Below are positions 8,654 to 52,199 of a DNA stretch of 64,000 nt, piece after piece. Source of the stretch: Rheinheimera sp. (GTDB taxonomy: Bacteria; Pseudomonadota; Gammaproteobacteria; Enterobacterales; Alteromonadaceae). The notes beneath the pieces were generated by a model. The model saw only the letters and a list, made by a program, of their open reading frames with translations, did not search any database and was not told the DNA's origin. How positions within the stretch are numbered: position 1 is the first letter of the stretch; the number at the start of each line of letters is the position of its first letter. Both the position numbers and the translations under genes were made by a program. The DNA lies in NCBI GenBank assembly GCA_008015325.1, contig SSFI01000056.1, positions 2,802 through 66,801 on the forward strand. Direction: 5' to 3'.

Positions 8654-8734
8654 TGCTATTATTTCCTGATTAAGGTCCAATCTACCCTAACATAAGGCGT
8701 CATTGGCATGCAATGACAGCACAGTCAAAAGCGT

Positions 8735-12700: not shown

Positions 12701-13053
12701 TTACTGATCAGGTCCAATGCCACCCAGGACGCGGCGATGCTGGGTAACATCGATAAAAAGGTGAGGCCGGGCTGATAACTGACTTCAGTACAAAGCGCAA
12801 ACGCCAGCATGCCGATAAAATGCATCGACCACACACCGCCGCCGAGCGCAATACTGCCACTGGCCAACATCAGCATCCGGTAACTGTGGCGTTGCATTTT
12901 TACTGCCTGCGCCGTGACATGCATCGCTATCGCCGAGGCCAGCACGGCAATCGCAAAAGACAACAACACCAAACCCGGCGTATAGCTGCCATTTAGCAGC
13001 AGCGGATCTGCCGGATATTCAAACCACTGTAAAAGCCATTGCAACAACAGCAC
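9715..13053 (-). CDS. Hybrid histidine kinase MHYT-PAS-PAS-HisKA-HATPase-REC-HPt
   Basis: MHFIGM/MHYAGM/MHYTGM repeats, two PAS domains, [10 protein letters not shown]-box, GGTGLG G-box, LMDIQMP REC, HAVKG HPt. Exact start uncertain. Confidence 0.92.
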
Positions 13054-13121
13054 CTCCGCCTGAATTGAGTTGTGGTCAGCGCCACGGCCTGATTATGTCA
13101 CAGCGGCTGTGCATCCACGGA

Positions 13122-15992
13122 TTAATTACCGGCCTGCACGACCTGGTCGCGGCCCTGAGCTTTGCCCTGATACAGTGCTAAATCGGCCGCTTTCACCGCC
13201 TGTTCCAGTGCGTCTGATTGCAAGGCCACGGCGCTGATGCCAAAAGTGGCGCTGAGCGGCGCCGGCAAGCCCCGCAGTTGCAATTGCCGGATGCCAAGCC
13301 GCAGTTCCTCCACCAGGCTGCTTGCTTGTTGCACATCGGTTTGTGGCATTAACAACAAAAATTCTTCGCCACCCCAACGCGCAATTAAGTCCTGGCCACG
13401 CAGTCGTTGTTTCAGATAAACCGCCACCGCTTTGAGCACGGCATCGCCGGTGTCATGACCGTGTTCATCGTTGATTTTTTTGAAATGATCGATATCCATC
13501 AGCACCAGAGTCAGGGCTGCCGGTGAGCGGCTGCGTTGCGCCTGTAATAAGACTGCGGCCGAATACAAAGCGCGCCGGTTTAACAAACCGGTCAGACTGT
13601 CGGTGTTGGATAATAATTGCAGTTGCTGATTGGCCAGTTCCAGTTCGGCGGTGCGCTGCGCGACCAGCAGATCCAGCGTGGCGGCGCGTTGTTGTAAGCG
13701 CCGGGTGCGTAAATGATACAACAGCCCCAGTACCAGCACCGTGCCGATGCAAAGGAGGGCGATACCAAGCGGGCGCTGCCAGAACGGCACCGGCACCTGT
13801 AGTAGCAAAGGCCGGGTCTGGACAAACTGGCCGCCGGCCTGCGCCATCACTTCCAGCCGGTGCTGGCCCGGACTGAGCTGACTTAAGGTCAACACTGCGT
13901 GCTCGCCGAGCGCAGTCCAGCTTTGCTCCGCATGCCAGCGGAAAAAATATTGCACGCGCAAATGGGGCTGAAAGGCCAGCAACTTAAACTGCAGCTGCAG
14001 CTCTTCAACTTTTTCCGGTAACAGAATGCTGCCTTTGCTTTCTGCCACATGAAATAACTGCCGGTTCAACCGCATACTGGTCAGGTGTAACTGCATTGAG
14101 GACGGCACCGCCGTCATATCCACCGGACTGAGCTGCCACAAGCCACTGCTGGTCGCGAGCTGCACCAAATCGCCATCAAGTGGGCTGATCCCCCGCAGCT
14201 GCGCACTGCTGAGATCAAGCCCTGGCCTTGCCGCAAGCAGATGTAAATTGCTGCCATCCGGGCTGAAACTCAGCACACCATTGCGGGTCAGTACCCAGAC
14301 AATATCCCCGCTGCGGGTCATGCCAATCACTCGCGGGTCCGGCAAGCCTTCCGCCTGACCGAGCAGTGAAAAGGTCTGCCGGTCTGGCTGCAGGCGAATA
14401 AGGCCTCGATCGGTACAGAGCCATAACAAGTCTTCGACCGGCAACATACATTGGAAATAGCCGGTGGCGAGTTTGTTGTCAGGTTGCCAGCGTAAGCTGA
14501 TTTTGTCGGCCTCGCCCTGATACAATTTGCCCTGCCGGCTTAATAACCACAGCCGTTGCTGCGCATCGGTCTGAATATCGACAATGCCTTCCTGCGCCTG
14601 CACGTCGGTTTGCAGTTGCACAGGCTGCCAGTCGGCGACCGGCAGCCTCGCTGCTTCAGCACCAATCCGGTACACGCCTTGTTCCCACAAGCCTAACCAT
14701 AAAGCGCCGTCTGCGGCGATAGCCATCCGTTCGATATTAAAACGCTTGGTGTTGAGCTCAAGTGGCAGCGGCACAAACTGATTGTCGCTGCTGAGCTGAA
14801 ACAAGCCCTGATCGGTGGCGGCCAGCGTGTAGGCGCCGAACTGCACCACATCGCGCACATAAGCCACCGGGCTCGCGGCGTCAAAACTCAGTTCACGCCA
14901 TTGGCCCTGCTGCAGCTGCAACAAGGATTTTTCCAGGGCCTGCCAGCGCGTATTGGTGATGGAAGGCGGACCTAGCCGGTGCTGTTGTTTTGGATTCAAA
15001 TAAGTGCTGATGGCAGGTTCAATCGGCCGGATCGCCGGGGCTGGCAGCATTTGCAGGCCGTTATTGCGGCTGGTCAGCCAGATTTGGCCGCGCCGGTCCC
15101 GAAAGATTTTGCGGATATCAACGGCGCTTTGCAGCAGTTCGGTGTGCAGTTTGCCAGCGATGAGGCTTAACCGGAACAGGCCATCGATGGAGCCAATTAA
15201 CCAGCTGCTGGCGGATTCAGCCAGGATCGCGTTGGGATTACCGACCCCGACCTGTTGGAGCTGATTGGGCTGTGCTAAATCCAGCAGATATAAGTGAGAG
15301 CGCAGGCCGACGAATAAATGCTGGTCCTGCGCGGCGACAGTGCGGATCTCCTGGTCACGAAATTCAGCCTGTTGCAGCCATTCGCCTTGCGCTGTTGGCG
15401 TTGGCGGCAAGCGATACAGGCCTTTGGAAGTAGCAACCCACAAGGTGCCGTCGTCCTGTTCGGTCAGTTGCCAGATGCGCTGGCCGGCGAGCGGCTGCCA
15501 CAGTTCGGCCTGCAGATTGTCCGGGTTTAACTTAAACAGCCCTTCGGTGGTGCCAATCCATAACACCTGTTGGCGGCTTAAATATAAGGTCTGGACCCGG
15601 GCATTATCTGGCAGCGGTGTACTGACCTGCTGCCAGTGCTGGCGCTGACTGTCGAGCCGCCACAGGCCATTGCCCCAGGTGCCGACCCACAGCTGATTGC
15701 GTTGGTCGCTGACGACCTGACTATAACTGACGGCGCGGCGCGGGCCCGGTGGCAGAAAACGCAGATATTCCTGGCCGTCATAGCGCAACAGACCTTCAAA
15801 CTCCGCGGCCAGCCAAAGAAAATCTTGCTGGTCCTGCGTCACGCCGTACACCACGCCCGGTACGTTTTGTGGCAGTTCCACTGTGGTTGCCGGCGGCGTC
15901 ATGGCTGCAGCATTTCCGCAGTGCATCCAGCCACCACACAACAAGGTGAGCAGGAGCATCAAACAAGTCAGGCGCTGGCAGCAATGCAACAA
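13122..15992 (-). CDS. Ligand-binding beta-propeller sensor (Y_Y_Y-type) diguanylate cyclase
   Basis: Signal-like N-terminus, repeated LW(V/I)GT blades, one TM helix, DSLTGLLNR, RGQD I-site, GGEEF. Start may be ATG 15959. Confidence 0.88.
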   Translation of the reverse strand: MLHCCQRLTCLMLLLTLLCGGWMHCGNAAAMTPPATTVELPQNVPGVVYGVTQDQQDFLWLAAEFEGLLRYDGQEYLRFLPPGPRRAVSYSQVVSDQRNQLWVGTWGNGLWRLDSQRQHWQQVSTPLPDNARVQTLYLSRQQVLWIGTTEGLFKLNPDNLQAELWQPLAGQRIWQLTEQDDGTLWVATSKGLYRLPPTPTAQGEWLQQAEFRDQEIRTVAAQDQHLFVGLRSHLYLLDLAQPNQLQQVGVGNPNAILAESASSWLIGSIDGLFRLSLIAGKLHTELLQSAVDIRKIFRDRRGQIWLTSRNNGLQMLPAPAIRPIEPAISTYLNPKQQHRLGPPSITNTRWQALEKSLLQLQQGQWRELSFDAASPVAYVRDVVQFGAYTLAATDQGLFQLSSDNQFVPLPLELNTKRFNIERMAIAADGALWLGLWEQGVYRIGAEAARLPVADWQPVQLQTDVQAQEGIVDIQTDAQQRLWLLSRQGKLYQGEADKISLRWQPDNKLATGYFQCMLPVEDLLWLCTDRGLIRLQPDRQTFSLLGQAEGLPDPRVIGMTRSGDIVWVLTRNGVLSFSPDGSNLHLLAARPGLDLSSAQLRGISPLDGDLVQLATSSGLWQLSPVDMTAVPSSMQLHLTSMRLNRQLFHVAESKGSILLPEKVEELQLQFKLLAFQPHLRVQYFFRWHAEQSWTALGEHAVLTLSQLSPGQHRLEVMAQAGGQFVQTRPLLLQVPVPFWQRPLGIALLCIGTVLVLGLLYHLRTRRLQQRAATLDLLVAQRTAELELANQQLQLLSNTDSLTGLLNRRALYSAAVLLQAQRSRSPAALTLVLMDIDHFKKINDEHGHDTGDAVLKAVAVYLKQRLRGQDLIARWGGEEFLLLMPQTDVQQASSLVEELRLGIRQLQLRGLPAPLSATFGISAVALQSDALEQAVKAADLALYQGKAQGRDQVVQAGN

Positions 15993-16664: not shown

Positions 16665-19307
16665 TTAGAACTTCACGGTATAACGCAGCGTCCAGTTGCG
16701 GCCTAACCAGTCGTGGATCGAGCTGGCATAACCGTTGGTTGGAGAGGATGCATAAGGTGGTTCTTTGTCGGTCAGGTTACGTACCGCGAACTGGATATCC
16801 TGTTTGTCGGTGATGTTGTAACCGATACTGGCGTTTAAGGTCAGCCAGGATTTGACGGTTTCATTGTCAAACTTGAAGTCACCATCGCCGAGCGAGCTGA
16901 TGTAGTGCGCGCTGAAGCTGACATTCCAGTCCTGCAGTTCCCAGTCAATCGCCGTGTCGCCGACAAATTCCGGCCGGGCGATTTCGCTGGCGCCACTGAG
17001 TTTACCCAGTAAATCTTCGGCCGGGTCGTCTGCCGTCAGCTGACGCTCGTAGCTCAACGTGCGGGTGCCGGCTAAGGTCAGGTTAAAACGGCCGGCGCTG
17101 CTGTCGAAGCCGTATTTGACTTTGGCGTCGATGCCGTCAGTTTCCTGAGCGCCGACGTTAAAGAAACCGGTGCGCAGGAATACCAAATCACCGCCGCTGT
17201 CTTTGACACAACCAAAAGCGCCGTTCAGGGCGGCTTCGTTAGTCACAGTCGGAGCCGTGCCGGCGAGACAGGCTTTTAACGTAGTGTTGGCGTCCACATC
17301 AACGATATCGGTGTGCTCATAACGCCAGTAATCCACAGTGATGTTGAAGTCGTCGGTCAGGTTCCAGGAGACACCGGCGTTCCAGGCTTCGGAGCTTTCT
17401 GCATCCAGCCCGCGGTTGCCCTGCGTTTCCTGGTCAAATTCCAGTTCTCCGGCCTGAGCACCGAAGCTGCCGCACAGGCCGTTATATGGTTTGCCGTTGC
17501 CACAATCGATATAGTTAGAACCTAATGAAGTACCAGCGCCGAGTTCAGACAAAGACGGCGCGCGGAAACCGGTGCTCCAGCTAGCGCGCAGAATTAAATC
17601 GTCAGTCGCTTTGTAGCGCAGTGACACTTTCGGGTTGGCATCACCACCAAAATCGCTGTAATGGTCATACCGCAGGGCAGTGATCGCATCCAGTTGCTCG
17701 GTCAATGGCAGGTTAAACTCCGCATAACCGGCATATTGCGTGCGGTCGGCGGCTGCATCGCTGGCGCCTAAGGTACTGACCAAACCTTGTTGGGCCACTA
17801 AAGCTGGCCGGTCGAAAATATCTTCGCTGCGCCATTCCCCGCCAAATACCGCGCTGATTGGGCCGGCTGGCAATTCACCGAGCTGACCGCTGAAGTTAAA
17901 GTCCCAGGATTTGACGTCCGATTCACCGACCCGTGGCGCCAGTTCACGCAAGCCGGCCAGCACTTCAGGCTTGGTGTCGCGGCCCCCATTATCACGACCA
18001 AGGTTAAACGGATTAAACTGGCCGCTGGCGGTCGCAGCTGCAACGCGGTCCAGGTTGAAATAACCGCTGGTATGTAACACTTCATTGTCGGATTTGCCGA
18101 TAGTCGCTGCTGTTTCCCAGCGCCAGCTGTCGCTGCTGCCAAACAAAGTGGTTTCACCGCGAAGGCCCGCCAGCAGGCGGTAGCTGTTGCTGTCATATTC
18201 CTGCATCCGCACTTCCGGATAACGGGAGCGGATGCGGATAGTGCCAACAGAGCCGTTTTTGGCGTCAATATCGCGGACCCACTGCGGCACTGAGCTCAGC
18301 GAACCCGGCACGCGCAGGTCAAAAGAGCCGGCCGAATCATAGGAATGGCCACTGTTTTGCTGAACCATAGCTTCAACAAAGAGTTCATTGTCACCACCGA
18401 GGCGATAGATATGGTTCAGCGTGGCGCCGAGGTTTTTACTGTCCGGCTGAATCGCCCGTTCCATCACATAGTCATATTGGCAGCGGGTGCCGCCGTTGCT
18501 GGTTGCGGTGCCACACCAAGGTTCAGCATAGTCTTTGCCGTCAATAGTGACGCGGGTTGACGATTTAAAAGTCACGTTGATCGGGCGATCTGCATTCATT
18601 AGCGCATCGCGGTCGAAGTAATCCAGCACCACAGTAGTGTTGGAGTTTTCCGTGGCAAAACCACCGGTATAGGTGAAGTTTTTGCGGGTGAAATCGCTAT
18701 CGGCACTGTCATCGCCATACATGGCGCTGATTTCCTGACCTTCATAATCTTTTTTCAGGATGAAGTTGATGACACCTGCGATAGCGTCAGAACCATAGAC
18801 TGAAGCGGCGCCGTCGGTCAGCACGTCGATGCGCTCAATTGCCGCCATCGGAATAGCATTGACGTTAACAAAAGAATCAAAGCCGTTGGAGAAAGAGTCA
18901 ACCGCGACGCGACGGCCGTTCACCAGCACCAGTGTGGAGCTCGAGCCCAGACCACGTAAACTGACGCCGGCCGCGCCCGGTGGGGTGCCGTCTGAACCAC
19001 CGACGTTGCCGTTTTCAGTGAAAGTGCCGGCGCTGGCGGCTTGCGGCAGGTCACGCAGGAAGCTGGCGACATTGTCGTAGCCTTTGTTAATCAGCTCTTC
19101 AGCAGTGAAGACCTGCAGTGGATTGGCGCCTTCCATGTCAACGCCTTTGAGGCGTGAACCTGTGACTTCAATTTTTTCGATTTTTTTCTCGGCATCCGCC
19201 TCAGCTGTTGCCGCCGGGGCTTGTTGGGCCTGAGTGCTGAAAGCCAGCAATAAAGCGCTGTACAGGGCTGATTTACGGATCATCGCTGCTGATGTCGTTG
19301 CGTTCAT
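16665..19307 (-). CDS. TonB-dependent outer-membrane receptor
   Basis: Signal peptide, EKIEVTGSR TonB-box region, plug motifs (LRGLG, LVLVNGRR, IERIDVL), C-terminal GRNWTLRYTVKF with terminal Phe; SD AGAGGA. Confidence 0.95.
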   Translation of the reverse strand: MNATTSAAMIRKSALYSALLLAFSTQAQQAPAATAEADAEKKIEKIEVTGSRLKGVDMEGANPLQVFTAEELINKGYDNVASFLRDLPQAASAGTFTENGNVGGSDGTPPGAAGVSLRGLGSSSTLVLVNGRRVAVDSFSNGFDSFVNVNAIPMAAIERIDVLTDGAASVYGSDAIAGVINFILKKDYEGQEISAMYGDDSADSDFTRKNFTYTGGFATENSNTTVVLDYFDRDALMNADRPINVTFKSSTRVTIDGKDYAEPWCGTATSNGGTRCQYDYVMERAIQPDSKNLGATLNHIYRLGGDNELFVEAMVQQNSGHSYDSAGSFDLRVPGSLSSVPQWVRDIDAKNGSVGTIRIRSRYPEVRMQEYDSNSYRLLAGLRGETTLFGSSDSWRWETAATIGKSDNEVLHTSGYFNLDRVAAATASGQFNPFNLGRDNGGRDTKPEVLAGLRELAPRVGESDVKSWDFNFSGQLGELPAGPISAVFGGEWRSEDIFDRPALVAQQGLVSTLGASDAAADRTQYAGYAEFNLPLTEQLDAITALRYDHYSDFGGDANPKVSLRYKATDDLILRASWSTGFRAPSLSELGAGTSLGSNYIDCGNGKPYNGLCGSFGAQAGELEFDQETQGNRGLDAESSEAWNAGVSWNLTDDFNITVDYWRYEHTDIVDVDANTTLKACLAGTAPTVTNEAALNGAFGCVKDSGGDLVFLRTGFFNVGAQETDGIDAKVKYGFDSSAGRFNLTLAGTRTLSYERQLTADDPAEDLLGKLSGASEIARPEFVGDTAIDWELQDWNVSFSAHYISSLGDGDFKFDNETVKSWLTLNASIGYNITDKQDIQFAVRNLTDKEPPYASSPTNGYASSIHDWLGRNWTLRYTVKF

Positions 19308-19527: not shown

Positions 19528-19602
19528 CTAATTATTAAACCACTCGGACAGGTAGTAAGGAGAGTAACGGTAGTTGCTCAGGTTGACTGCGCATTTCAAC
19601 AT
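19528..19602 (-). CDS. 24-aa leader peptide 1, MLKCAVNLSNYRYSPYYLSEWFNN, upstream of the TonB-dependent receptor
   Basis: Manual translation; strong SD (AAGGAGGAGAGTC-ATG); TAG stop; 17/24 identical to the ORF at 21791-21865. Confidence 0.85.
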   Translation of the reverse strand: MLKCAVNLSNYRYSPYYLSEWFNN

Positions 19603-19792: not shown

Positions 19793-21625
19793 TTAGCGAT
19801 TGATTTGCAGATAAAAATTCTGATAAGAACAATAATCTGTCACCGGATCCACTTGCGAATAAGTACCAAGGGCGGCCCGGCTGTCGGGCTGTTGCTGCAG
19901 TACCAGCTGTGCCTGCGCTGCCAGGCCTTCGGCCCGGGCTTGCCTGCTGCGGCACAGTTGCAGCGCCAGCTGCCGGTAATTGTCACCTGTCAGGATGTCG
20001 TTGTTTTTCAGTACGCTGGCGGAAGTATCCGGCACTTTCACTGGCTTTTTCCAGGGGGCAAACTGCAGGGTCAGCTCGCCGTTATGCAGCAATGCCTGGT
20101 CATCCCGGCTCAGGTAGTGGGTGCGCACACCGCTGATGGTCCAGGCCGCGCCGCTGTCTTTGGCCTTAGCGCCGGCGAGATCGGCGATATAAACACCTGA
20201 TGCACCAAGCACAGCAAAGCGGGCGTTGTTTGGGGCTGTCGGATTGAAGCCAACCAGCAGGGCAGTGGCTTCGTCAACGCCAAAACCGTAGCGGGTTTGG
20301 GTATCGCTTAATAGCCTTACCAGCCTTGCTTCGCGGCCACGTTCGGAAAAATGCGTGTCGGTGACACCAAAGGGGAATAAACCCAGGCCACCCTGGGCCC
20401 GGTAAGTCAGCTGGTCTTCGGCCAGTTCAGCAGGGCAGCTGTGATTTTTTTCACAACCAGCCAGTGGCGCCTCTGCCGGCACAGCGCCGCTTTGCAGTGC
20501 CTGAGCGCTGCTGCCATTGCTGATCATCGGCACTGTTTTTTCGGTAAAGCGGCCGCCGGCTTGCACCGCAGTACCCGCGCTGGTGCCGGCGACAATCAGC
20601 TTGCCTGCCTGCAGCCGGGCAGTGATGGCCTTCAGTTCCGGGCTGGCGCTGCCGTCTGGCAGGCGCAGCGCTTGCAACGTCAGGCTTTGGTCGCCGCCGT
20701 TAAAAAAGATCGCATCGGCTTGTTCAATTTGCGCGACTGCAGCGGCCGGGCCTTGCTGGCAAAAAGCCTGCAGATCGGCGAATAAATCCGGATAGACCGC
20801 AGCGCGGTTGTAGCTGCCGTGGATGTCAGCGAGGTACTGCGGTAATTGCTCACAACTGGCTTTGCCGGCGGTTTTTTGCTGTTGTGCGGCCTGATACGCG
20901 GCGTTCAGCGGTAACCAGCGCGCCTCGGCACCAGTCTCGGCAAAAGCGCTTTGATAAAAATCTACCGCGGCCAGCGGGTCACGGCTGGATGCTGTGACCA
21001 CCAAAACTACAGGCTTCCCCGGTTTTTGCCGCACTTTGCCCGCCAGTTCAGTGATTTTCTCGTAGATTTCGACACTGAACTTGTCTTTAGTCTGCGCCAG
21101 ACTGGCCTGTTCACGCTGGCGTTGTTGTTGCGATAGCTGCGGCTGCTGCAGCAGGTCAAACATCAGGTTCAGCTCCAGTTCGGACAGCTGCTGATACAGC
21201 GTTTCGCCTCTGATGGTCTGACCGGCCAGTTCAACTTTGGCCAGCCGTAAGCGTTGGCGCAGTTCCTCTTCAGTCATGGCCTTGGTGCCAAAATCCAGTA
21301 TCAGCTGACTGAGGATGGCTTGTGTTTGCTGGCGCTGTTCAGCCCGGCTTTCTGGCCACACTGCGGATTGGCTGATGTCACGGATGCGGGGCAGGCTCAG
21401 CGCGTACAGTTCGGTGCTTTTGGTATTGGCGGCAAACTGCGGATTGTCGCTGCAGGAAGATCGGCTTTGCGAGCTGCAGGTATGCAGGCCACCACCGACT
21501 AACACCATTGAATATTCAGGAAATTTCGTAGAAGCAGTTGCAGCAGACGCGGCGCTGCAAAGCGCAAGCGCCGGCAGCAATTTCGGCAACACTGGGCTGA
21601 AAGATCGTTTCATTTTAAGGTCCAT
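19793..21625 (-). CDS. Secreted cyanophycinase (peptidase S51 family)
   Basis: Signal peptide; LVGGG, IFFNGGDQ, GTSAG (catalytic Ser), DTHFSERGREARL (His), GVDEAT (Glu). Start 21625 or 21613. Confidence 0.87.
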   Translation of the reverse strand: MDLKMKRSFSPVLPKLLPALALCSAASAATASTKFPEYSMVLVGGGLHTCSSQSRSSCSDNPQFAANTKSTELYALSLPRIRDISQSAVWPESRAEQRQQTQAILSQLILDFGTKAMTEEELRQRLRLAKVELAGQTIRGETLYQQLSELELNLMFDLLQQPQLSQQQRQREQASLAQTKDKFSVEIYEKITELAGKVRQKPGKPVVLVVTASSRDPLAAVDFYQSAFAETGAEARWLPLNAAYQAAQQQKTAGKASCEQLPQYLADIHGSYNRAAVYPDLFADLQAFCQQGPAAAVAQIEQADAIFFNGGDQSLTLQALRLPDGSASPELKAITARLQAGKLIVAGTSAGTAVQAGGRFTEKTVPMISNGSSAQALQSGAVPAEAPLAGCEKNHSCPAELAEDQLTYRAQGGLGLFPFGVTDTHFSERGREARLVRLLSDTQTRYGFGVDEATALLVGFNPTAPNNARFAVLGASGVYIADLAGAKAKDSGAAWTISGVRTHYLSRDDQALLHNGELTLQFAPWKKPVKVPDTSASVLKNNDILTGDNYRQLALQLCRSRQARAEGLAAQAQLVLQQQPDSRAALGTYSQVDPVTDYCSYQNFYLQINR

Positions 21626-21790: not shown

Positions 21791-21865
21791 ATGCTGAAAA
21801 ATGCCTTTGCTTTAAGCTCATATCACTACTCGTCCTACTACCTGTCGGAGTGGTTTAACGAGTAG
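21791..21865 (+). CDS. 24-aa leader peptide 2, MLKNAFALSSYHYSSYYLSEWFNE, upstream of yfcC-iadA
   Basis: Manual translation from ATG 21791 to TAG 21865; same length as leader 1 with invariant YYLSEWFN. SD is weak (GGTAG). Confidence 0.82.
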   Translation: MLKNAFALSSYHYSSYYLSEWFNE

Positions 21866-21869
21866 ATCT

Positions 21870-21894
21870 CAGCCAGACATCCGCTGTCTGGCTG
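21870..21894 (+). promoter_or_regulatory. Hairpin right after leader peptide 2 (pause/attenuator candidate, no U-tract)
   Basis: CAGCCAGACA-tccgc-TGTCTGGCTG, perfect 10-bp stem with 5-nt loop, starting 4 nt after the UAG. Confidence 0.7.
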
Positions 21895-22017: not shown

Positions 22018-23553
22018 ATGTCTGTTACCCCGAAATCGCCGCAGTCCGGCCCGGCGTCAGCCACCCCGACGCCAGGCGTGGCCACATCAGCGACGTCCAT
22101 GCCCGATGCCATGGTGATCCTGTTTTTTATCATGGTGCTGGCGGCTATCGCTTCGCACCTGATCCCGGCAGGTTCCTTTCAACTGCTGGAACCGGCGCCG
22201 GTGGCCGAAGGTGCCGCCAAAGTCACTGGTAAACTCGACCCGAATAGTTTTCGCTTTGCCGAAAACAGCGCAGGCGGCGTACCGCTGTTTGCTGAAGGCG
22301 GCGGTATCGGGTTTTTTAATTATGCCTTTGAGGGCCTGGTGTCGGGCAATAAGTGGGGCTCGGCGATTGGCGTGGTGATGTTTATCCTGCTGACCGGGGG
22401 TGCTTTTGGCATCCTGATGAAAACCGGCGCAATTCACAACGGGATTCTGGCACTGATCCGGCGCACACAGAATCTGCAGATTTTATTTATCCCAATATTA
22501 TTTCTACTGTTTTCGCTCGGTGGTGCTGTGTTTGGTATGGGCGAAGAGGCAATTGCTTTTTGCATCATTCTGCTGCCACTGATGCTGGCGCTGGGCTATG
22601 ACGCGATCACCACGGTGTTGGTGACTTATGTCGCAACTCAAATCGGTTTTGCAACGTCCTGGATGAACCCGTTTAACATTGCCATCGCGCAGGGTATTGC
22701 CGAGATCCCGTTGTTTTCCGGCCAGGAATTGCGCATGGTGATGTGGGCGGTGTTTACGCTGTTTGGTTTGATTTTCACGATGCGCTACGCCGCCAAAATC
22801 AAAGCCAATCCGACATTGTCCCTCAGTTATCAGTCAGATCTGCGCCAGCGCAGTCAGCACAGTGCACAGGTGATCAGTCAGTATCAGCTGCTTGATTCAG
22901 TGATCCTGCTGGTGTTTTTTGCCGGTCTTGGCTGGATCATCTGGGGCGTGACCAGTCGCGAATATTACATTCCGGAAATTGCCAGCCAGTTTTTCACTAT
23001 TGGTATCGTGATTGGTGCCATCGCAGTGATTGGCCGGCGCCTGAAGGTGAACGATGTTGCCGATGGTTTTAAACAAGGTGCAGCAGAATTGCTGCCGGCG
23101 GCGATGATTGTCGGTATGGCCAAAGGCATGTTGTTGCTGCTTGGTGGCGGTGACCCGCAAACGCCGTCGGTACTCAATACCTTATTGTATTACTCGGCGC
23201 AATCGCTGCAGGATTTGCCGGCCTATTTATCTGCCTGGCTGATGTTGGTGGTGCAGTCGGTGATTAACTTTTTTGTTTCATCCGGCTCTGGCCAGGCCGC
23301 ATTGACCATGCCGCTGATTGCACCTTTGTCGGATTTGATTGGCCTGTCGCGCCAGACCGCCGTATTGGCTTTTCAACTCGGCGATGGCCTGACCAACTGT
23401 ATTATCCCAACTTCTGCTGCGTTGATTGGTTGCCTTGGTGCCGTGCGGCTGGATTGGACTGTCTGGCTACGTTTTGTCTGGCGCCTGCAGCTCTATCTGT
23501 TTGGTTTAGCCAGTGCTTTTATGCTGCTCGCCGTCGCCATTCAATATCAGTAA
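22018..23553 (+). CDS. yfcC: YfcC-family inner-membrane transporter (putative basic amino acid/dipeptide antiporter)
   Basis: Multi-TM protein with IPAGSF, GMGEEAIAF, SWMNPF, SGSGQAALTMP, FQLGDGLTN motifs typical of YfcC/DcuC-like carriers. Confidence 0.85.
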   Translation: MSVTPKSPQSGPASATPTPGVATSATSMPDAMVILFFIMVLAAIASHLIPAGSFQLLEPAPVAEGAAKVTGKLDPNSFRFAENSAGGVPLFAEGGGIGFFNYAFEGLVSGNKWGSAIGVVMFILLTGGAFGILMKTGAIHNGILALIRRTQNLQILFIPILFLLFSLGGAVFGMGEEAIAFCIILLPLMLALGYDAITTVLVTYVATQIGFATSWMNPFNIAIAQGIAEIPLFSGQELRMVMWAVFTLFGLIFTMRYAAKIKANPTLSLSYQSDLRQRSQHSAQVISQYQLLDSVILLVFFAGLGWIIWGVTSREYYIPEIASQFFTIGIVIGAIAVIGRRLKVNDVADGFKQGAAELLPAAMIVGMAKGMLLLLGGGDPQTPSVLNTLLYYSAQSLQDLPAYLSAWLMLVVQSVINFFVSSGSGQAALTMPLIAPLSDLIGLSRQTAVLAFQLGDGLTNCIIPTSAALIGCLGAVRLDWTVWLRFVWRLQLYLFGLASAFMLLAVAIQYQ

Positions 23554-23565
23554 AAGGAATTCTTT

Positions 23566-24747
23566 GTGAACCCGATGCTTCTGTTAAAAAATGCTGAACT
23601 GATGGCGCCACAACCGCTGGGCCGGCAGGACGTGCTGGTGGCAGGCAACCGGATTGTCGCCATAGGCCACGATTTTAATTTGTCCGGCAGCAATGTTCCG
23701 GTCACTGTGCTGGACTGCACTGACTATTACCTGACCCCCGGTTTTGTTGATTCACTGGTACATTTTATCGGTGGTGGCGGTGAAGGTGGTTTTGCCACCC
23801 GCACGCCGGAGATGCAGTTAACTGATGCCACGCTTGCTGGTGTAACCACCGCCATCGGTGTGTTAGGCACTGATGCCACCACCCGCACTTTAACCAACTT
23901 GCTGGCCAAGGCCCATGCGCTGGAGGCTGAGGGCATCAGCACTTATTGCCACACCGGCTCTTATGAAATCCCTTGCCGGACGCTGACGGGGAGCATCACC
24001 GACGATTTGATTCTGATCGATAAGTTTATCGGTGTCGGCGAAATCGCCATCAGCGATCATCGTTCGTCGCAGCCCACCACCGACGAAATTCGCAAAGTCG
24101 CGGCTGCAGCGCGGGTCGGTGGCATGTTAGCCGGCAAAAGTGGTGTGGTCAGCGTGCATGTCGGCGCCGGCGAACGCATGCTGCAGCCGCTGTATCAGGC
24201 TGTCAGTGGCACTGAGCTGAAACTGAAACAGTTCTATCCGACCCATATGAACCGCAACCGGCGCATCTTTGAGGCCGGCATTGAATTTGCCAAAAAAGGT
24301 GGCGTGATTGATTTCACGACCAGCACCACGGCTTATGATTTGCAGCACGGCGAAGTCGCAGCCGCAGCGGCACTGGCAGAAGCGTTGTATCTCGGTATAA
24401 CGCCACTGCAACTGACATTAAGTTCGGACGGTAATGCCAGTTTGCCGATTTTTAACGAGGAAGGCGAATTACAGGGTTTGCAGGTCGGGCAGGTGCGTAG
24501 TCTGTTTGATAGTATGCGTGAGGCAGTGCAGCGGCACCATGTACCGCTGGCCGCTGCGCTTACCGCAGTGACTGCCGCCCCGGCCGCAGTGCTGGGTTTG
24601 TCGCAAAAGGGCCGTGTAGCGGTTGGCCTGGATGCAGACTTGCTGTTACTGCGCCGGGACGATTTACAGCTGGATTCAGTCGTTGCCAAAGGCCGGTTAC
24701 TGGTGCAGGGCGGGCAGGCACTGGTCAAAGGCACTTTTGAACGTTGA
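23566..24747 (+). CDS. iadA: Beta-aspartyl peptidase (isoaspartyl dipeptidase)
   Basis: GGGGEGGFATRTPE, GTDATTR, GEIAISDHRSS, PTHMNRN, SSDGNASLP; GTG start with AAGGA, 12 nt after yfcC. Confidence 0.93.
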   Translation: MNPMLLLKNAELMAPQPLGRQDVLVAGNRIVAIGHDFNLSGSNVPVTVLDCTDYYLTPGFVDSLVHFIGGGGEGGFATRTPEMQLTDATLAGVTTAIGVLGTDATTRTLTNLLAKAHALEAEGISTYCHTGSYEIPCRTLTGSITDDLILIDKFIGVGEIAISDHRSSQPTTDEIRKVAAAARVGGMLAGKSGVVSVHVGAGERMLQPLYQAVSGTELKLKQFYPTHMNRNRRIFEAGIEFAKKGGVIDFTTSTTAYDLQHGEVAAAAALAEALYLGITPLQLTLSSDGNASLPIFNEEGELQGLQVGQVRSLFDSMREAVQRHHVPLAAALTAVTAAPAAVLGLSQKGRVAVGLDADLLLLRRDDLQLDSVVAKGRLLVQGGQALVKGTFER

Positions 24748-24869: not shown

Positions 24870-25529
24870 ATGCCGATGCAATATATCTGTATAGCCGATG
24901 ATCACCCGCTGTATCGTGATGCGCTCAAAGACGTGCTGCATCAGCATTTCACTGCGCTGAGCGTGCTGGAAGCCGGCTCGCTGGCGCAAGTGCTGGAACT
25001 CGCTGCAGCTTATCCGGCGCTGGAATTTATTCTGCTCGATTTAAATATGCCGGGAATGGCCGGATTAAATGGCTTAGTGCAGCTGCGTCAGCTGTTTCCG
25101 CAGGTAGCAGTCGCGATGTTGTCGGCCGAGGATGACAAACAAACGGTGTTGCAGGCGATGGCGTTTGGTGCGGCCGGTTTTATTTCCAAAGCCGCTGGCC
25201 GGCAGCAATTGGTCAGTGCGCTGAAGCAATTGCTCAATGGCGACATTTATCTGCCGGCGGATACCTTTCGGCAAAGTGCCATCACCAGCAGTGACACCAT
25301 AGTACACAAAGCCGAACAGGCGTTATTACGCAGCCTGACTAAAAAACAAATCAAAGTGTTACAGCGCATGGTCAGCGGCGAGTCGAACAAACAAATTGCC
25401 GACGCGCTCTGTATCGCTGAAACCACAGTCAAAGCCCATGTTTCTGCCGTGCTGGCTAAACTCGGCGTGTCAAGCCGGGTGCAGGCTATTTTGCTGGCAA
25501 GAGATCTCGATTTCAGTTTGTATCTTTAA
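24870..25529 (+). CDS. NarL/LuxR-family response regulator, ErbR(AgmR)-like
   Basis: IADDHPL, LLDLNMPG, GESNKQIA...IAETTVKAHVSA...RVQAIL; closely resembles Pseudomonas ErbR (from recall). Confidence 0.88.
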   Translation: MPMQYICIADDHPLYRDALKDVLHQHFTALSVLEAGSLAQVLELAAAYPALEFILLDLNMPGMAGLNGLVQLRQLFPQVAVAMLSAEDDKQTVLQAMAFGAAGFISKAAGRQQLVSALKQLLNGDIYLPADTFRQSAITSSDTIVHKAEQALLRSLTKKQIKVLQRMVSGESNKQIADALCIAETTVKAHVSAVLAKLGVSSRVQAILLARDLDFSLYL

Positions 25530-25535
25530 CCCGTC

Positions 25536-27350
25536 TCAAACACCCAACAATAAATGGCGCAGCATACTTTTCAGCTGCAGCGGCCGCACCGGTTTATATA
25601 GCAGCTGATAACCCTGTTGTTTCAGAGCAATAGCGAGCTGCTGCTGGCTGTTGGCAGTGATGATCAATACCGGCACATCGGCAAATCCGGTCTGACTTCT
25701 TAATTGTTGCACCACAGCGGTGCCAAGCAGACCATCTGCCAGCTGGTAATCAACAATCAGCAAATCAGGTTTTTCTTTGGCGTTAAAAGCGCCGGCGTCG
25801 GCACCGCTTTGCACCTGATAACCCCAGCTGGTTAATAACGTATTCATCGCCTGACAAATAGTCGCGTCATTATCGATGACCCAAATGCTGGCGTTTGCTT
25901 TATCCATCACCGGCAGTATCAGCTGTGGCGGTTCAGACGCTGGCTCAGCGATGGGCAACTTCAGAGCAAACACAGAACCGCGGTTCAGTTCCGACTGCAC
26001 CCGCAGCGGATGCGCTAACAAGTGGCATAATCGTTCGACAATAGCGAGGCCAAGGCCCAGGCCGGCTTCAGTGGCGCGGCTTTGCGGCAGACGCTGAAAC
26101 TCCTGAAAAATCAGCTCAAGATGTTCATCAGCGATGCCGACGCCGCTGTCGAGCACCTGAATTTCCACCTTGTCGCCGCGTCGCCGGCAGCCCAGTAACA
26201 CTGCGCCGCCGGGTGGCGTGTAGCGCAGCGCATTGGTCAGCAGATTGCGTAAAATCCGTGTCAGCCAGCTTGGGTCTGTTTGTACTGTGAATTGGCTGGC
26301 GACAAAACGAAAACGCAGACCTTTGCTGGCCGCGAGAGCTGCAAACTCACTGGCCAGCGCCGCTAACAAAGGCCCAAGCGCCACGTTACTGCAGTCCGGT
26401 TGCAGCTGACCGGCGTCTAGTTTGGATAAATCCACCAGGGTGCGCAGTAAATCACCAACATCGTCCAGCGCCCGACCGGCCGACAGCGCCAGCTGTTGCT
26501 GGTTGTGGCCGAGCGGCTGTTCCAATAAAGCGCCATTAAACAGCCGGGCGGCGTTCAGCGGCTGTAACACATCGTGGCTGACTGCAGCCAGTAACTGACT
26601 TTTTGACTGATTGGCCTGTTCGGCCGCTGTGGTGGCGGCGCGCAATTGCTGGTTCAGCGCCGTCAGCGCGCTAGTGCGTTCAGCCACACGTTGTTCCAGA
26701 TGTAAATTAGCCTGACGTAAGGCTTCTGAAGTGCGTTTACGCTCAGTGATGTCGCGGTTTAATACAAAAAAACCGCTGATTTGTTGTTGCTCGTCGCGAT
26801 GCGGCACATAGGTTTTCAGCAAATGCCGCCACTCACCGTCGGCATTTTGCTCGTCAATTTCAAACACGACTTGCTCGCCGCTTAATACCTGCAACACATA
26901 AGGCGCCAGTCTGGCGGCGCCTTCCGGGCCATGCGCAGCATCCAAAGTCTGATTTAATAAACTGCCGGCCGGGACGCCATAAAAGTCGTCGTAACCGCGG
27001 TTGGTAAACAGATAAATGCCGGCTGCCGAGAGATAGGCAATCATCGCCGGCACATGGTCGGTGATAGTGCGGATCCAGCGCTCGCTTTGCGCCAGCGTTT
27101 CTGAATAACGCACCGAGCGGCGCAGCTCGTCATAAGCGCGCGACAGCTCAGCGGTGCGTTCCCGCACTTGTTCGGCCAGCACCGCAGCATGTTGAAACGC
27201 GGCATAAGGCCCGGTGTGCACGGCGTTTTGGCCGGCCTCGACCCGTTCAATCAACGCCTGATTGATTTTGCGCAGCTTTTGGTTTTCCGCTTGCAGTGCC
27301 AACAGCTGTTGCTCAAGATCGGCTTTTTGCGTTGTGGTTGTTTCAGTCAT
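25536..27350 (-). CDS. PAS hybrid sensor kinase, NahK/ErcS-like
   Basis: Coiled coil LRKINQALIERVE...YAAFQH, PAS, SHDVLQPLNA H-box, GLGLGL, C-terminal REC; 8-nt overlap with the FIST gene. Confidence 0.87.
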   Translation of the reverse strand: MTETTTTQKADLEQQLLALQAENQKLRKINQALIERVEAGQNAVHTGPYAAFQHAAVLAEQVRERTAELSRAYDELRRSVRYSETLAQSERWIRTITDHVPAMIAYLSAAGIYLFTNRGYDDFYGVPAGSLLNQTLDAAHGPEGAARLAPYVLQVLSGEQVVFEIDEQNADGEWRHLLKTYVPHRDEQQQISGFFVLNRDITERKRTSEALRQANLHLEQRVAERTSALTALNQQLRAATTAAEQANQSKSQLLAAVSHDVLQPLNAARLFNGALLEQPLGHNQQQLALSAGRALDDVGDLLRTLVDLSKLDAGQLQPDCSNVALGPLLAALASEFAALAASKGLRFRFVASQFTVQTDPSWLTRILRNLLTNALRYTPPGGAVLLGCRRRGDKVEIQVLDSGVGIADEHLELIFQEFQRLPQSRATEAGLGLGLAIVERLCHLLAHPLRVQSELNRGSVFALKLPIAEPASEPPQLILPVMDKANASIWVIDNDATICQAMNTLLTSWGYQVQSGADAGAFNAKEKPDLLIVDYQLADGLLGTAVVQQLRSQTGFADVPVLIITANSQQQLAIALKQQGYQLLYKPVRPLQLKSMLRHLLLGV

Positions 27351-28506
27351 GCAGCTGGTCTGCAGGCTTGGCGATCACCACGCCGGTGAAGGTTTGATTC
27401 AGATGCACACCCTGAAAATGCTCGCCATAAGTGTTGAAACCAAACACACGATGGGCACGAAAAAATTCTGACGCCTGTGGCAAACTCCGACGCTCGGCGC
27501 TTTCCAGCCGGCGCAGTACACAGTCGCAGCCGATAGTGATCAGCGGCTCGCCGATGCGCTGTTCGATCTCAGCAAAGCGTTGTTGTAAATCCGGCAAAAT
27601 CGGTTGTGGCTGCATCGTCGTCAGCACAGCACCAAGCCCGACCGCGCAATAAAAGGTCAGGCTACCGTCCGGATTGACGCGCTGAATAGACCGCACGTAA
27701 TAATCTTTGCCGATTTTCACCGCCAGCGGATGCATGGCAAAAACGGTGGCATTGAGTTCAGTCACGGTACAACCTATGGCCGCCGCGTAGGCGACGGCGG
27801 CAGGTTCTGCGTTCAGTTCCTGCACGGTGCGCATGTCTGTTGTCGCTGCTGTGACCACCAGTTTGTGGGTCAGCGCGCTGACATGGTGGGTGCTGAACAC
27901 TTCAAAGGGCAGCGTGGTGTGCAGCATAATGACCGCCGCTGCGCCCTGATAAAACCGGCCATTGGCGAAAATATGGGTGGCGCTGAGCAGGTTGTCATCG
28001 CCGGCCGAACCGCCAAAATGAGCGATATTGCCCAGTGCTGTTTCGAGTGCCAGCAGCACCATTTCTTCCTGCGCGGATAAACCATCGAGCAGCGTCAGCA
28101 CAAAAGGTCGGGCTTCTTGTGGATCCTGTAGTGTATGTTGCAGCCTATGTTGCAATAGGGCATCAACCAACTGCTGTGCTTTGAATAAATCAAAAGCCGC
28201 CAAATCTTCGATACAGGCCAGCGCTACTTGAAAGTGGCTGGCGCTGAAACCCAAAGCACAAATAGTGCCCTGGTCGTAGCCGCGTGGTGTGATTTCACCG
28301 GCTGTGGTGCAGCCGGCGAGCGGCATGTCGGCAAAATGGCCGGCAAAGGCTTGTTCCAGCGCAGACCGGTCATATTCGGCAGAGCAAAAAAACAACACAA
28401 AACCGGGTTTGGCAGGTAACAGCTGGGCAGCAAGTTCAGCCACCGCCTGATTGGCATCGGGCGCGGCAGACATAGCGGCAACAATAGGGTCGGAACAGGC
28501 AGACAT
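27343..28506 (-). CDS. nosP: FIST-domain sensor protein, NosP-like
   Basis: LAGCTTAGEI, FGGSAGDD, YYVRSIQ, IGCDCVLRRLE, GFNTYGE, HLNQTFTG. Start moved to ATG 28506 (387 aa). Confidence 0.8.
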   Translation of the reverse strand: MSACSDPIVAAMSAAPDANQAVAELAAQLLPAKPGFVLFFCSAEYDRSALEQAFAGHFADMPLAGCTTAGEITPRGYDQGTICALGFSASHFQVALACIEDLAAFDLFKAQQLVDALLQHRLQHTLQDPQEARPFVLTLLDGLSAQEEMVLLALETALGNIAHFGGSAGDDNLLSATHIFANGRFYQGAAAVIMLHTTLPFEVFSTHHVSALTHKLVVTAATTDMRTVQELNAEPAAVAYAAAIGCTVTELNATVFAMHPLAVKIGKDYYVRSIQRVNPDGSLTFYCAVGLGAVLTTMQPQPILPDLQQRFAEIEQRIGEPLITIGCDCVLRRLESAERRSLPQASEFFRAHRVFGFNTYGEHFQGVHLNQTFTGVVIAKPADQLHD

Positions 28507-28627
28507 AATTTCGCCTAAAGCTGGCCTGGACGGCAGGCATGTACCGGATTGTAGGGCGAATTTCTTGCCACAGGCAAGCCGGACCACAGTCCGGCGCCGT
28601 GACAGCAGGCTGGTGCCAAAAACGGAC

Positions 28628-30151
28628 TTAGAAAAAGCCCAGTGGGTTGACGTCATAACTAATCAGCAGGTTTTTGGTTTGCTGATAGTGATTGAGCATC
28701 ATTTTGTGCGTTTCGCGGCCGACGCCGGATTTTTTGTAACCGCCAAAAGCTGCATGTGCCGGATAGTGGTGATAACAGTTAGTCCAGACGCGGCCAGCTT
28801 CAATTCCACGACCCATGCGGTAAGCGCGGTTCATGTCACGGGTCCAGACGCCGGCGCCTAAGCCAAATTCAGAGTCATTGGCGATGGCGAGCGCTTCCGC
28901 TTCAGTTTTAAAAGTGGTCACGGCAACCACAGGGCCAAAGATCTCTTCCTGGAACACGCGCATTTTGTTGTGGCCTTTGAGCAGGGTCGGCTGCACATAA
29001 AATCCACCGTTGAGGCCATCGCCCAGCGCTTCTTTATCGCCGCCAATCAGCACCTGCGCGCCTTCTTCGCGGCCAATGGTCAGATAACTCATGATTTTAT
29101 CAAATTGCTGCGCCGACGCCTGGGCGCCAACCATCACTTCGGTATCGAGCGGATTCCCGCGTTTGATGGCTTTGGTGCGCTCAATCACTTTGGCGATAAA
29201 GGCATCATAAATACTGTCTTCGACCAGCAAGCGGGACGGGCAGGTACAGACTTCGCCCTGGTTAAAAAACGCCAGCACCACGCCTTCAATACATTTGCTT
29301 AAGTAACTGTCTTCAAAATTCATCACATCAGCAAAAAAGATATTCGGTGATTTGCCGCCCAGTTCAACTGTCGAAGGGATGATATTTTCGGCGGCACATT
29401 TAAGGATATGTGAACCTGTTGGCGTCGAGCCGGTAAAGGCAATTTTGGCAATGCGCTTGCTGGTGGCCAGTGCTTCACCGGCTTCGCGGCCATAACCATT
29501 GACGACGTTCAGTACCCCGGCTGGAAGTAAATCTTCAATAATTTCAATGAATTTTAAGATAGACCACGGCGTTTGTTCGGCCGGTTTTAATACCACGCAG
29601 TTGCCTGCAGCGAGTGCCGGTGCCAGTTTCCAGGCGGCCATCAGTAAAGGGAAATTCCACGGAATGATCTGACCGACGACGCCGAGCGGTTCATGTAAAT
29701 GATAAGCCACAGTGTGCTGGTCAATTTCACCGATACTGCCTTCCTGCGCGCGGATAGCGCCGGCAAAATAACGGAAATGGTCGACGGCGAGCGGCACATC
29801 AGCGTTTAAAGTTTCGCGTACGGCTTTACCATTGTCCCAGGTCTCCGCAACGGCGATTTGTTCCAGATGTTGTTCCAGCCGGTCGGCGATTTTCAGTAAT
29901 AAATTCGAACGGAAAGTGACTGAAGTGGCGCCCCAGCTGGCTTTGGCGGCGTGGGCGGCATCCAGCGCCAGCTCGATATCTTCGGCCGTAGAGCGTGGGA
30001 TTTGGCAAAACGGCAGGCCGGTGACTGGTGAAATATTATCAAAATACTGGCCTTTCACCGGCGCCAGCCATTTGCCACCAATGAAATTACCATATTGTGC
30101 TTTGACGGTTACAAGGGCGCCGTCTTGCCCTGGATTTGCATAAATCATCAT
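28628..30151 (-). CDS. NAD-dependent aldehyde dehydrogenase (ExaC/AldB type)
   Basis: [38 protein letters not shown]-terminal YDVNPLGFF. Confidence 0.93.
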
Positions 30152-48327: not shown

Positions 48328-49581
<1,254 letters not shown>

Positions 49582-49694
49582 GCGCCTGTTTTGATCGAAG
49601 CGGCGACCGGCCTGGTCGCCGCAGCTGTAAACCACTGCGGGGCTATGAACTACTGCGATGCTGTCCCCGCACCGCAACTCCGAGGAAGCGACCC

Positions 49695-50711
49695 ATGATG
49701 GTGATCCGTCCAATCCGCGCCGCAGATTTCCCGGTGCTTTATGAAATGGCGGTTGAATCCGGCCACGGTTTTACTTCGTTACCGGTCAACGACGAACTGC
49801 TGCAACGCAAAATTAACCGCTCTGAGCAGAGCTTTCGCAAAGCGGTACAGAAGCCGGTCGATGAGGGCTATCTGTTTGTGCTGGAAGACACTGTCAGCGG
49901 CGAGATTTGCGGCACCAGTGCCATCGAAGCCGCGGTCGGGCTGGACGATGCCTTTTATAACTATCATCTGGGTAAGGTTGTCCATACGTCGCGGGCGTTA
50001 GGCGTTTACAAGACCGTCGATATTCTGACGCTCTGTAACGACTACACCGGCGCCACTGAACTGTGCACTTTGTTTCTGCGCGAGCACCGCCGCGAAAAAA
50101 ACAACGGCAAGATGTTGTCGCGGTTCCGCTTTTTGTTTATGGCGGAATTTCGTGAGCGCTTTTCTGACCGCATCATCGCCGAAATGCGCGGTGTGTCGGA
50201 CGAAAACGGCAATTCGCCATTCTGGGAATGGCTGCAGGAACACTTCTTTTCGGTCGATTTCCCGACCGCCGATTATCTGACCGGCATCGGCCAGAAAGTC
50301 TTTATCGCCGAATTAATGCCGAAGTACCCGATTTACGTCAGCCTCCTCAGCAAAGAAGCGCAGGCGGTGATCGGCAAAGTGCATGAAAAAACCCGCCCGG
50401 CGCTGCAGTTGCTGCAGTCGGAAGGTTTTTCCACTACAGGTTATGTCGACATTTTTGACGCCGGTCCGACCGTGGAAGCCAAGCTTGAACATATCCGCAC
50501 CGCACGCAACAGTCGCCGGTTGCAAGTGCGTATCGCACCGGTCAGCGGCGGTCAGCCTTATCTGGTCTGCAATACCGGCTGCGAGAATTTCCGCGCCAGC
50601 TGGACCCATCTGCATCTGGCAGAAACCGCCACTGAGGTCAATCTGCCGGCCGAGTTTGCCGAAGCGCTGCAAGTCAGTGACGGCGACTGGGTGCGGTTAG
50701 CCCGTTTATAA
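49695..50711 (+). CDS. astA: Arginine N-succinyltransferase
   Basis: GFTSLP, LCNDYTG, ELCTLFL, AEMRGVSDE, YVDIFDAGPT. Confidence 0.95.
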   Translation: MMVIRPIRAADFPVLYEMAVESGHGFTSLPVNDELLQRKINRSEQSFRKAVQKPVDEGYLFVLEDTVSGEICGTSAIEAAVGLDDAFYNYHLGKVVHTSRALGVYKTVDILTLCNDYTGATELCTLFLREHRREKNNGKMLSRFRFLFMAEFRERFSDRIIAEMRGVSDENGNSPFWEWLQEHFFSVDFPTADYLTGIGQKVFIAELMPKYPIYVSLLSKEAQAVIGKVHEKTRPALQLLQSEGFSTTGYVDIFDAGPTVEAKLEHIRTARNSRRLQVRIAPVSGGQPYLVCNTGCENFRASWTHLHLAETATEVNLPAEFAEALQVSDGDWVRLARL

Positions 50712-50717
50712 ATTTGA

Positions 50718-52199
<1,482 letters not shown>

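Follow-up and report, generated by a model that had tools for sequence, protein, structure and literature searches.

The carrier YfcC, encoded directly ahead of the isoaspartyl dipeptidase gene iadA in Rheinheimera sp., is proposed here to import beta-aspartyl dipeptides for IadA, chiefly beta-Asp-Arg at the locus described. The proposal, whose probability we put at roughly two in three, comes from the analysis of a 64,000-nucleotide stretch of contig SSFI01000056.1 (hereafter the window), and it starts from gene identities, an operon structure and a conserved linkage that are directly observed. An earlier note on the same DNA had suggested beta-Asp-Arg or isoaspartyl dipeptides as the substrate of YfcC. 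As a hypothesis drawn from sequence comparison, this suggestion has gained support from the duplication of the pairing within the genome, its recurrence in several phyla and gene orders, the replacement of IadA by the enzyme IaaA at some loci and the absence of YfcC from cyanophycin producers.

The background to the proposal lies in the use of cyanophycin, a nitrogen polymer, by bacteria that scavenge it. IadA enzymes hydrolyse beta-Asp-Arg, and scavengers must import this dipeptide (PMC10206079, PMC9974463). A transporter forms part of the 'cyanophycin utilization locus' described by Ben Hania et al. in 2017 (cited in PMC10206079), and in 2012 a TonB receptor was observed to adjoin a cyanophycinase gene (PMC3400609). 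The NCBIfam label of the YfcC family, NF008611, reads 'putative basic amino acid antiporter', and YfcC has been assigned to the ArcD family (PMC11720521). The earlier note called YfcC-family carriers poorly characterised; a 2024 review agrees, stating that the function 'remains to be characterized' (PMC11477304).

Organisation of the yfcC-iadA locus

The features of the locus are collected in Table 1. The product of yfcC is a full-length member of its family: it scores 700.1 bits against the equivalog model NF008611 (cut-off 500), covering positions 1-492 of 492, and 410.6 bits against the Pfam family PF03606 (DcuC; gathering score 23.1), covering positions 1-460 of 461, which places it among the DcuC/ArcD-type carriers. 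Its match to the AbgT family (PF03806, ABG_transport) is partial and, at 26.3 bits, falls below the cut-off of 27, outside that family. The source organism is close to R. texasensis, whose YfcC is 96% identical, and E. coli YfcC shows 51% identity over the full length. Residues 1-27 of the annotated protein are of low complexity, are modelled with low pLDDT and lie beyond the family-model match, so that translation may start at Met28 (22099) instead of at 22018.

Table 1. Features of the cyanophycin-related region of the window and of the downstream arginine catabolic genes
Feature	Position	Strand	Description
TonB-dependent outer-membrane receptor	16665..19307	-	880 aa; Plug and TonB_dep_Rec_b-barrel domains
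YYLSEWFN motif, paralogous leader ORF	19534..19557	-	in the interval separating the S51 and TonB receptor genes
S51 peptidase, cyanophycinase-like	19793..21625	-	610 aa; Sec-type N-terminal signal sequence; PF03575
24-codon leader ORF	21791..21865	+	ends YYLSEWFNE-TAG; upstream of yfcC; inverted repeat at 21870-21894 after it
yfcC	22018..23553	+	511 aa; NF008611 700 bits, PF03606 410 bits; proposed beta-aspartyl dipeptide importer
iadA	23566..24747	+	393 aa; TIGR01975 498 bits; PDB relatives isoaspartyl dipeptidases only, including 8dqn and 1onw
astC-astA-astD	48364..52199	+	TIGR03246, TIGR03244 and TIGR03240 above cut-offs; about 25 kb downstream, outside the operon

The second gene of the operon encodes the dipeptidase expected of a scavenging locus, with 498 bits against the beta-aspartyl-peptidase model TIGR01975, whose cut-off is 331. 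The 12-nt spacing between yfcC and iadA claimed in the earlier note is exact: the TAA stop codon occupies 23551-23553, the GTG start codon of iadA is at 23566, and AAGGAA stands ahead of it. A scan for promoters and terminators between 21.5 and 25 kb gave nothing bearing on the operon above the shuffled expectation. The placement of IadA in the cytoplasm also held, as the alignment of the protein to the model begins at its fifth residue (model position 2) and leaves no signal peptide. Because IadA works in the cytoplasm, its substrate must be imported, and among the genes located between 13 and 30 kb of the window YfcC is, as had been proposed, the only inner-membrane transporter. Just past iadA, the region 24870-30151 carries genes for an ErdR-like response regulator and a NahK-like hybrid kinase, together with those for the NO sensor NosP and the acetaldehyde dehydrogenase ExaC; since only the closest relatives share this arrangement, it is probably unrelated to the cyanophycin genes.

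On the other side of yfcC, the gene arrangement extends the operon into a probable scavenging locus. The description of yfcC as divergent from a secreted cyanophycinase stands with one refinement: there is a divergent S51 gene whose product bears a signal sequence, but its score of 91 bits against the cyanophycinase model TIGR02069 is below the cut-off of 126.6, so the name cyanophycinase-like is used. The only PDB matches of the protein are nevertheless cyanophycinases (3EN0, 7UQV and 7UQW), and the alignment to them retains GGDQ, GTSAG, DTHF..R.R..R and GVDE. We take these motifs to correspond to Gln101, the Ser132-His174-Glu201 triad and the three pocket arginines of CphB. The leader peptide behind which yfcC had been placed is a real reading frame of 24 codons and a TAG stop. 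Its YYLSEWFN motif has two matches in the window, at 19534-19557 (-) and 21836-21859 (+), against none in 100 shuffles, and precedes both the receptor gene and the yfcC-iadA operon. This common leader-peptide motif would reflect a shared regulation of the two, and is counted in favour of the proposal. The motif was also found upstream of the operon in 59 of the fetched loci. In Rheinheimera, Alishewanella, Arsukibacterium and Alkalimonas it consistently stands ahead of the operon's first gene, whether the operon is receptor-yfcC-iadA or yfcC-iadA; it was not found in the loci from Shewanella, Colwellia and Thalassotalea.

A second module and the arginine genes of the genome

The pairing of yfcC with iadA occurs twice in the genome. 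On contig C119 (locus L096), positions 7470-15044 of the minus strand hold genes for an Oar-like receptor (1022 aa), an S51 peptidase (602 aa), a YfcC (484 aa) and an IadA (391 aa), all on one strand and with gaps of 4 nt and 12 nt. The two YfcC proteins are 48% identical, and the YYLSEWFN leader motif was not found in the C119 locus. A LuxR-type regulator is encoded upstream of this module, and beside it, at 3-6120 of L096, are genes for an RHS-repeat protein (more than 1252 aa, running off the contig end) and an FG-GAP/InlB B-repeat protein.

The genome has no cyanophycin synthetase (cphA1, TIGR02068), the best match reaching 87.6 bits against a cut-off of 850, and in this respect it is that of a scavenger. 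A match to arginine deiminase (arcA, TIGR01078) is likewise missing from the genome, which is 99.99% complete; the role of an Arg/Orn antiporter (ArcD) named for the family therefore does not fit, and the association with arcABC that would go with it is not seen. The likely route for released arginine is given by astC-astA-astD, and a second astA is present on contig C38.

Conservation of the yfcC-iadA linkage

The linkage between the two genes was surveyed in 161 loci, consisting of 80 loci from a scan that used one genome per species, 80 loci from metagenome contigs scanned with a 40-sequence alignment, and the stretch of contig C119. Over these loci and the window itself, 164 YfcC copies with 44-96% identity were tabulated by tblastn; the counts apply to this range of identity, which lies above that of the more distant family members such as the arc-linked ArcD types. 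An iadA gene lies within 300 nt of the YfcC copy in 120 of the 164 cases, with a median gap of 28 nt, and within 3 kb in two. The remaining copies have an IaaA-type peptidase nearby (4), an S51 gene only (7), AST genes (2) or no such neighbour (15), or are located on contigs too short to judge (14). When the copies were grouped at 80% identity, 35 of the 51 informative clusters were linked to IadA, and seven, including the enteric clade with the order ackA-pta-yfcC, were without a link to any such enzyme.

The position of iadA relative to yfcC is downstream in 111 cases, upstream in 8 and divergent in 3. In named genomes the pairing was found in 10 genera of Pseudomonadota and in Anaerovorax (Bacillota), and a FastTree phylogeny showed the IadA-linked state scattered across the whole YfcC subfamily instead of confined to one clade. 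Of the 66 IadA-linked genome loci whose flanks reach 6 kb or more, 57 had a TonB receptor at most 4 kb from yfcC, and an S51 gene was nearby in only 6 of the 17 long-flanked metagenome loci that carry yfcC-iadA. The latter figure means that a specificity for beta-Asp-Arg, as opposed to beta-Asp-X generally, is not established. The conserved core is YfcC together with the isoaspartyl dipeptidase, to which Gram-negative scavengers have added the S51 peptidase and the TonB receptor. In three Alishewanella loci a second, distant YfcC/DcuC paralogue (30% identity) is encoded a few kb past the S51 gene (L027 14910-16271, L030 15076-16389 and L031 14407-15768).

Other partners take the place of IadA in part of the subfamily. 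A Verrucomicrobiota locus has genes for an S51 peptidase, AstB and an Asparaginase_2 protein (IaaA-type isoaspartyl aminopeptidase) directly ahead of yfcC, and three metagenome loci have the order receptor-yfcC-S51-IaaA. IaaA is not homologous to IadA, and its occurrence with yfcC, like that of the other partners, points to the same chemistry. A Marinimicrobia locus shows M20-S51-yfcC with overlapping genes, and in Pelagicoccus (L076) the order is M20-AstA-AstD-yfcC, with no dipeptidase. The most complete locus among those surveyed (L112 6845-21436) consists of receptor-yfcC-iadA-S51, again with overlapping genes, flanked by M20-astA-astD-astB on the opposite strand. On one metagenome contig (L119 8009-11493), yfcC is followed directly by a gene for full-length CphA2, matching PDB 8FXH with an E value of 7e-138. 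This structure is that of hexameric cyanophycin synthetase 2, an enzyme polymerising beta-Asp-Arg, and the arrangement suggests that dipeptide could be taken up there for re-polymerisation. A CphZ partner was considered for locus L110, where an AstE/AspA-family gene comes after yfcC; the gene has no PDB relative labelled CphZ and was not counted as a dipeptide hydrolase.

Cyanophycin producers and E. coli as comparison

An even sample of 300 Gammaproteobacteria was searched for YfcC (above cut-off) and IadA. YfcC was found in 3 and IadA in 5 of the 300 genomes, and the two co-occurred only in the Rheinheimera source genome. In all four other genomes with IadA, iadA adjoins cphA, which identifies them as cyanophycin producers, and in two of these four a 275-aa S51 gene of the intracellular type adjoins as well. 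YfcC above the family cut-off is absent from all four producers; one of them (G238) has a DcuC-family match below threshold on another contig. Conversely, a CphA-like gene was present in only 1 of the 161 YfcC loci, namely the CphA2 of L119. The absence of YfcC from producers and its presence with IadA in a scavenger indicate that the carrier accompanies IadA where the substrate is external.

In E. coli the two genes are separate. All 5,426 complete E. coli genomes that were searched carry YfcC, and the order ackA-pta-yfcC was confirmed in an annotated record. In NZ_CP028192.1 (L178 2490-4816) iadA instead comes last in yjiH-yjiG-iadA, behind the genes for two uncharacterised membrane proteins of the 'nucleoside recognition domain' type, YjiH and YjiG. 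As a membrane pair encoded ahead of iadA, they fit the slot of an importer upstream of the dipeptidase gene, and could be the analogous importer in E. coli.

Predicted fold and conserved residues

The AlphaFold2 model of YfcC (pLDDT 88.9, pTM 0.85) gave as its top Foldseek matches the AbgT-family structures of MtrF and YdaH (4r1i and 4r0c; TM 0.60-0.63), followed by TRAP SiaQM and VcINDY. By this model YfcC is predicted to be an elevator-type secondary carrier of the IT superfamily; the fold carries no direct information on the substrate. A PDB search returned no solved structure related to YfcC by sequence. Residues shared by 90% or more of the YfcC proteins linked to IadA or IaaA mostly persist in the small unlinked set, which includes the enteric clade. 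The unlinked clades are the enteric ackA-pta-yfcC group, Paraferrimonas and a few small clades, and no residue consistently separated linked from unlinked YfcC in a comparison of weak power, the unlinked set having only nine sequences. With no position splitting the two sets, E. coli YfcC may share the substrate class of its linked relatives. Some homologues (P0007, of 948 aa, P0006 and P0011) have C-terminal extensions of 150-450 residues without a Pfam match. They were considered as Rosetta-stone fusions of YfcC with IadA, an idea that was ruled out as they show no Pfam domain besides DcuC.

Proposed role of YfcC and alternative explanations

The arrangement of the locus allows a pathway to be outlined. 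Cyanophycin fragments would be taken through the outer membrane by the TonB-dependent receptor, and the secreted S51 cyanophycinase-like peptidase would yield from them beta-Asp-Arg, together with beta-Asp-Lys. YfcC would then carry the beta-aspartyl dipeptides into the cytoplasm, where IadA, presumably translationally coupled to the carrier, would cleave them to Asp and Arg, the latter being broken down by the AST pathway. The substrate of YfcC, the direction in which it is moved and the ion coupled to its transport are what we infer from gene content and order. In lineages that have the yfcC-iadA pair alone, YfcC probably imports beta-aspartyl dipeptides in general.

A different role is implied by the family name and by the placement of YfcC in the ArcD family, both of which would make it a carrier of free basic amino acids, acting as an Arg/Orn or Arg/Lys exchanger or as an Arg importer, with the dipeptide entering through another permease. 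The only characterised relatives do point to free arginine and ornithine, and some homologues occupy AST arginine-catabolic operons devoid of a dipeptidase, as in the Pelagicoccus locus. We regard this as quite unlikely, because the arginine deiminase pathway is missing from the genome and the tight and widespread coupling is with isoaspartyl dipeptidases (IadA/IaaA), not with arginine enzymes. Moreover, producers also release Arg intracellularly and do so without YfcC, and the Arg made by IadA inside the cell would render an Arg importer in the same operon redundant. Import of the dipeptide could also be tied to export of a product, with beta-Asp-Arg exchanged for Asp, Arg, Orn or a C4-dicarboxylate in an ArcD- or DcuC-like manner, which is a mechanistic variant of dipeptide import by YfcC. 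Such precursor/product exchange is in line with the characterised members of the wider family, which are exchangers or C4-dicarboxylate carriers (Pfam DcuC, ArcD family), and with the fact that the product aspartate is itself a C4-dicarboxylic amino acid. Sequence features do not tell coupling modes apart, however, and net uptake is the more natural expectation for a scavenging locus that has a TonB receptor and, nearby, full AST catabolism; we consider the exchanger unlikely.

The linkage itself might be a case of historical hitch-hiking, in which YfcC has an unrelated role such as the one it may have beside ackA-pta in enterics. The E. coli type of YfcC, unlinked to iadA in spite of 51% identity and the same conserved residues, would agree with this, as would the position of E. 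coli iadA after yjiH-yjiG. Coincidental retention has, however, very little chance of accounting for a linkage that recurs in different phyla, gene orders and paralogues, and with partner enzymes that are not homologous, between two genes that are both rare (1-2% of the sampled Gammaproteobacteria). The opposite extension, that the whole YfcC subfamily of at least 44% identity, including E. coli YfcC, is a dedicated beta-aspartyl (isoaspartyl) dipeptide permease, is put forward tentatively and with the odds leaning against it. If true, it would provide the first dipeptide substrate of DcuC/ArcD-type carriers and the missing uptake step both in cyanophycin scavenging and, beside cphA2, in the reuse of beta-Asp-Arg. 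The more restricted proposal of dipeptide import for IadA would make an orphan carrier family, present in all E. coli genomes searched, directly testable. If correct, it would fill the uptake step in the environmental turnover of cyanophycin and would correct, for IadA-linked members, the database name 'basic amino acid antiporter', which is probably misleading there.

Comparison with known systems

The Rheinheimera locus resembles the published cyanophycin scavenging loci, as far as these are represented in the citing literature, in combining a cyanophycinase (in Rheinheimera a cyanophycinase-like protein), an isoaspartyl dipeptidase and a transporter with the lack of cphA1. It differs from them in that the transporter is given in those accounts as 'a transporter' or 'amino acid transporters', with no mention of YfcC or a DcuC-type carrier in the descriptions consulted. 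A literature search found nothing that connects cyanophycin or isoaspartyl dipeptidase to YfcC or to the names 'basic amino acid antiporter' and 'C4-dicarboxylate anaerobic carrier', although Ben Hania 2017 may name the family. Scavenging loci with a transporter have thus already been published, and the functional assignment suggested here for YfcC from its gene context appears to be unpublished. In C. difficile, yfcC forms an operon with a gene for an M20D amidohydrolase under a lysine riboswitch (PMC11477304), another pairing of carrier and amidohydrolase that would deliver a basic amino acid.

E. coli YfcC belongs to the same NCBIfam equivalog as the Rheinheimera protein and keeps most conserved residues, but is encoded after ackA-pta, apart from iadA. 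The ArcD proteins of Halobacterium and streptococci are arginine/ornithine antiporters (TC 2.A.118). They are related to YfcC within the wider family (PMC11720521) and have a substrate with an arginine side chain; however, they serve the arginine deiminase pathway, whereas the partner of Rheinheimera YfcC is a dipeptidase, which implies a dipeptide, in a genome without arcA. The AbgT family (MtrF, YdaH) provides the nearest solved fold, yet it has only about 15% identity to YfcC and is a different family. E. coli AbgT works with the AbgAB amidohydrolase. The likeness to the role proposed for YfcC is that an amino-acid conjugate is imported and then split by a cytoplasmic amidohydrolase. A further parallel in gene arrangement is AotJQMP of P. 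aeruginosa, the one transporter that genetic evidence connects with beta-Asp-Arg import, which, like YfcC, is encoded beside a dipeptide hydrolase, the CphZ enzyme AotO (PMC9974463). AotJQMP, an ABC system, is driven by ATP, has a binding protein and is paired with a non-homologous hydrolase, CphZ, whereas YfcC is a predicted secondary carrier paired with IadA.
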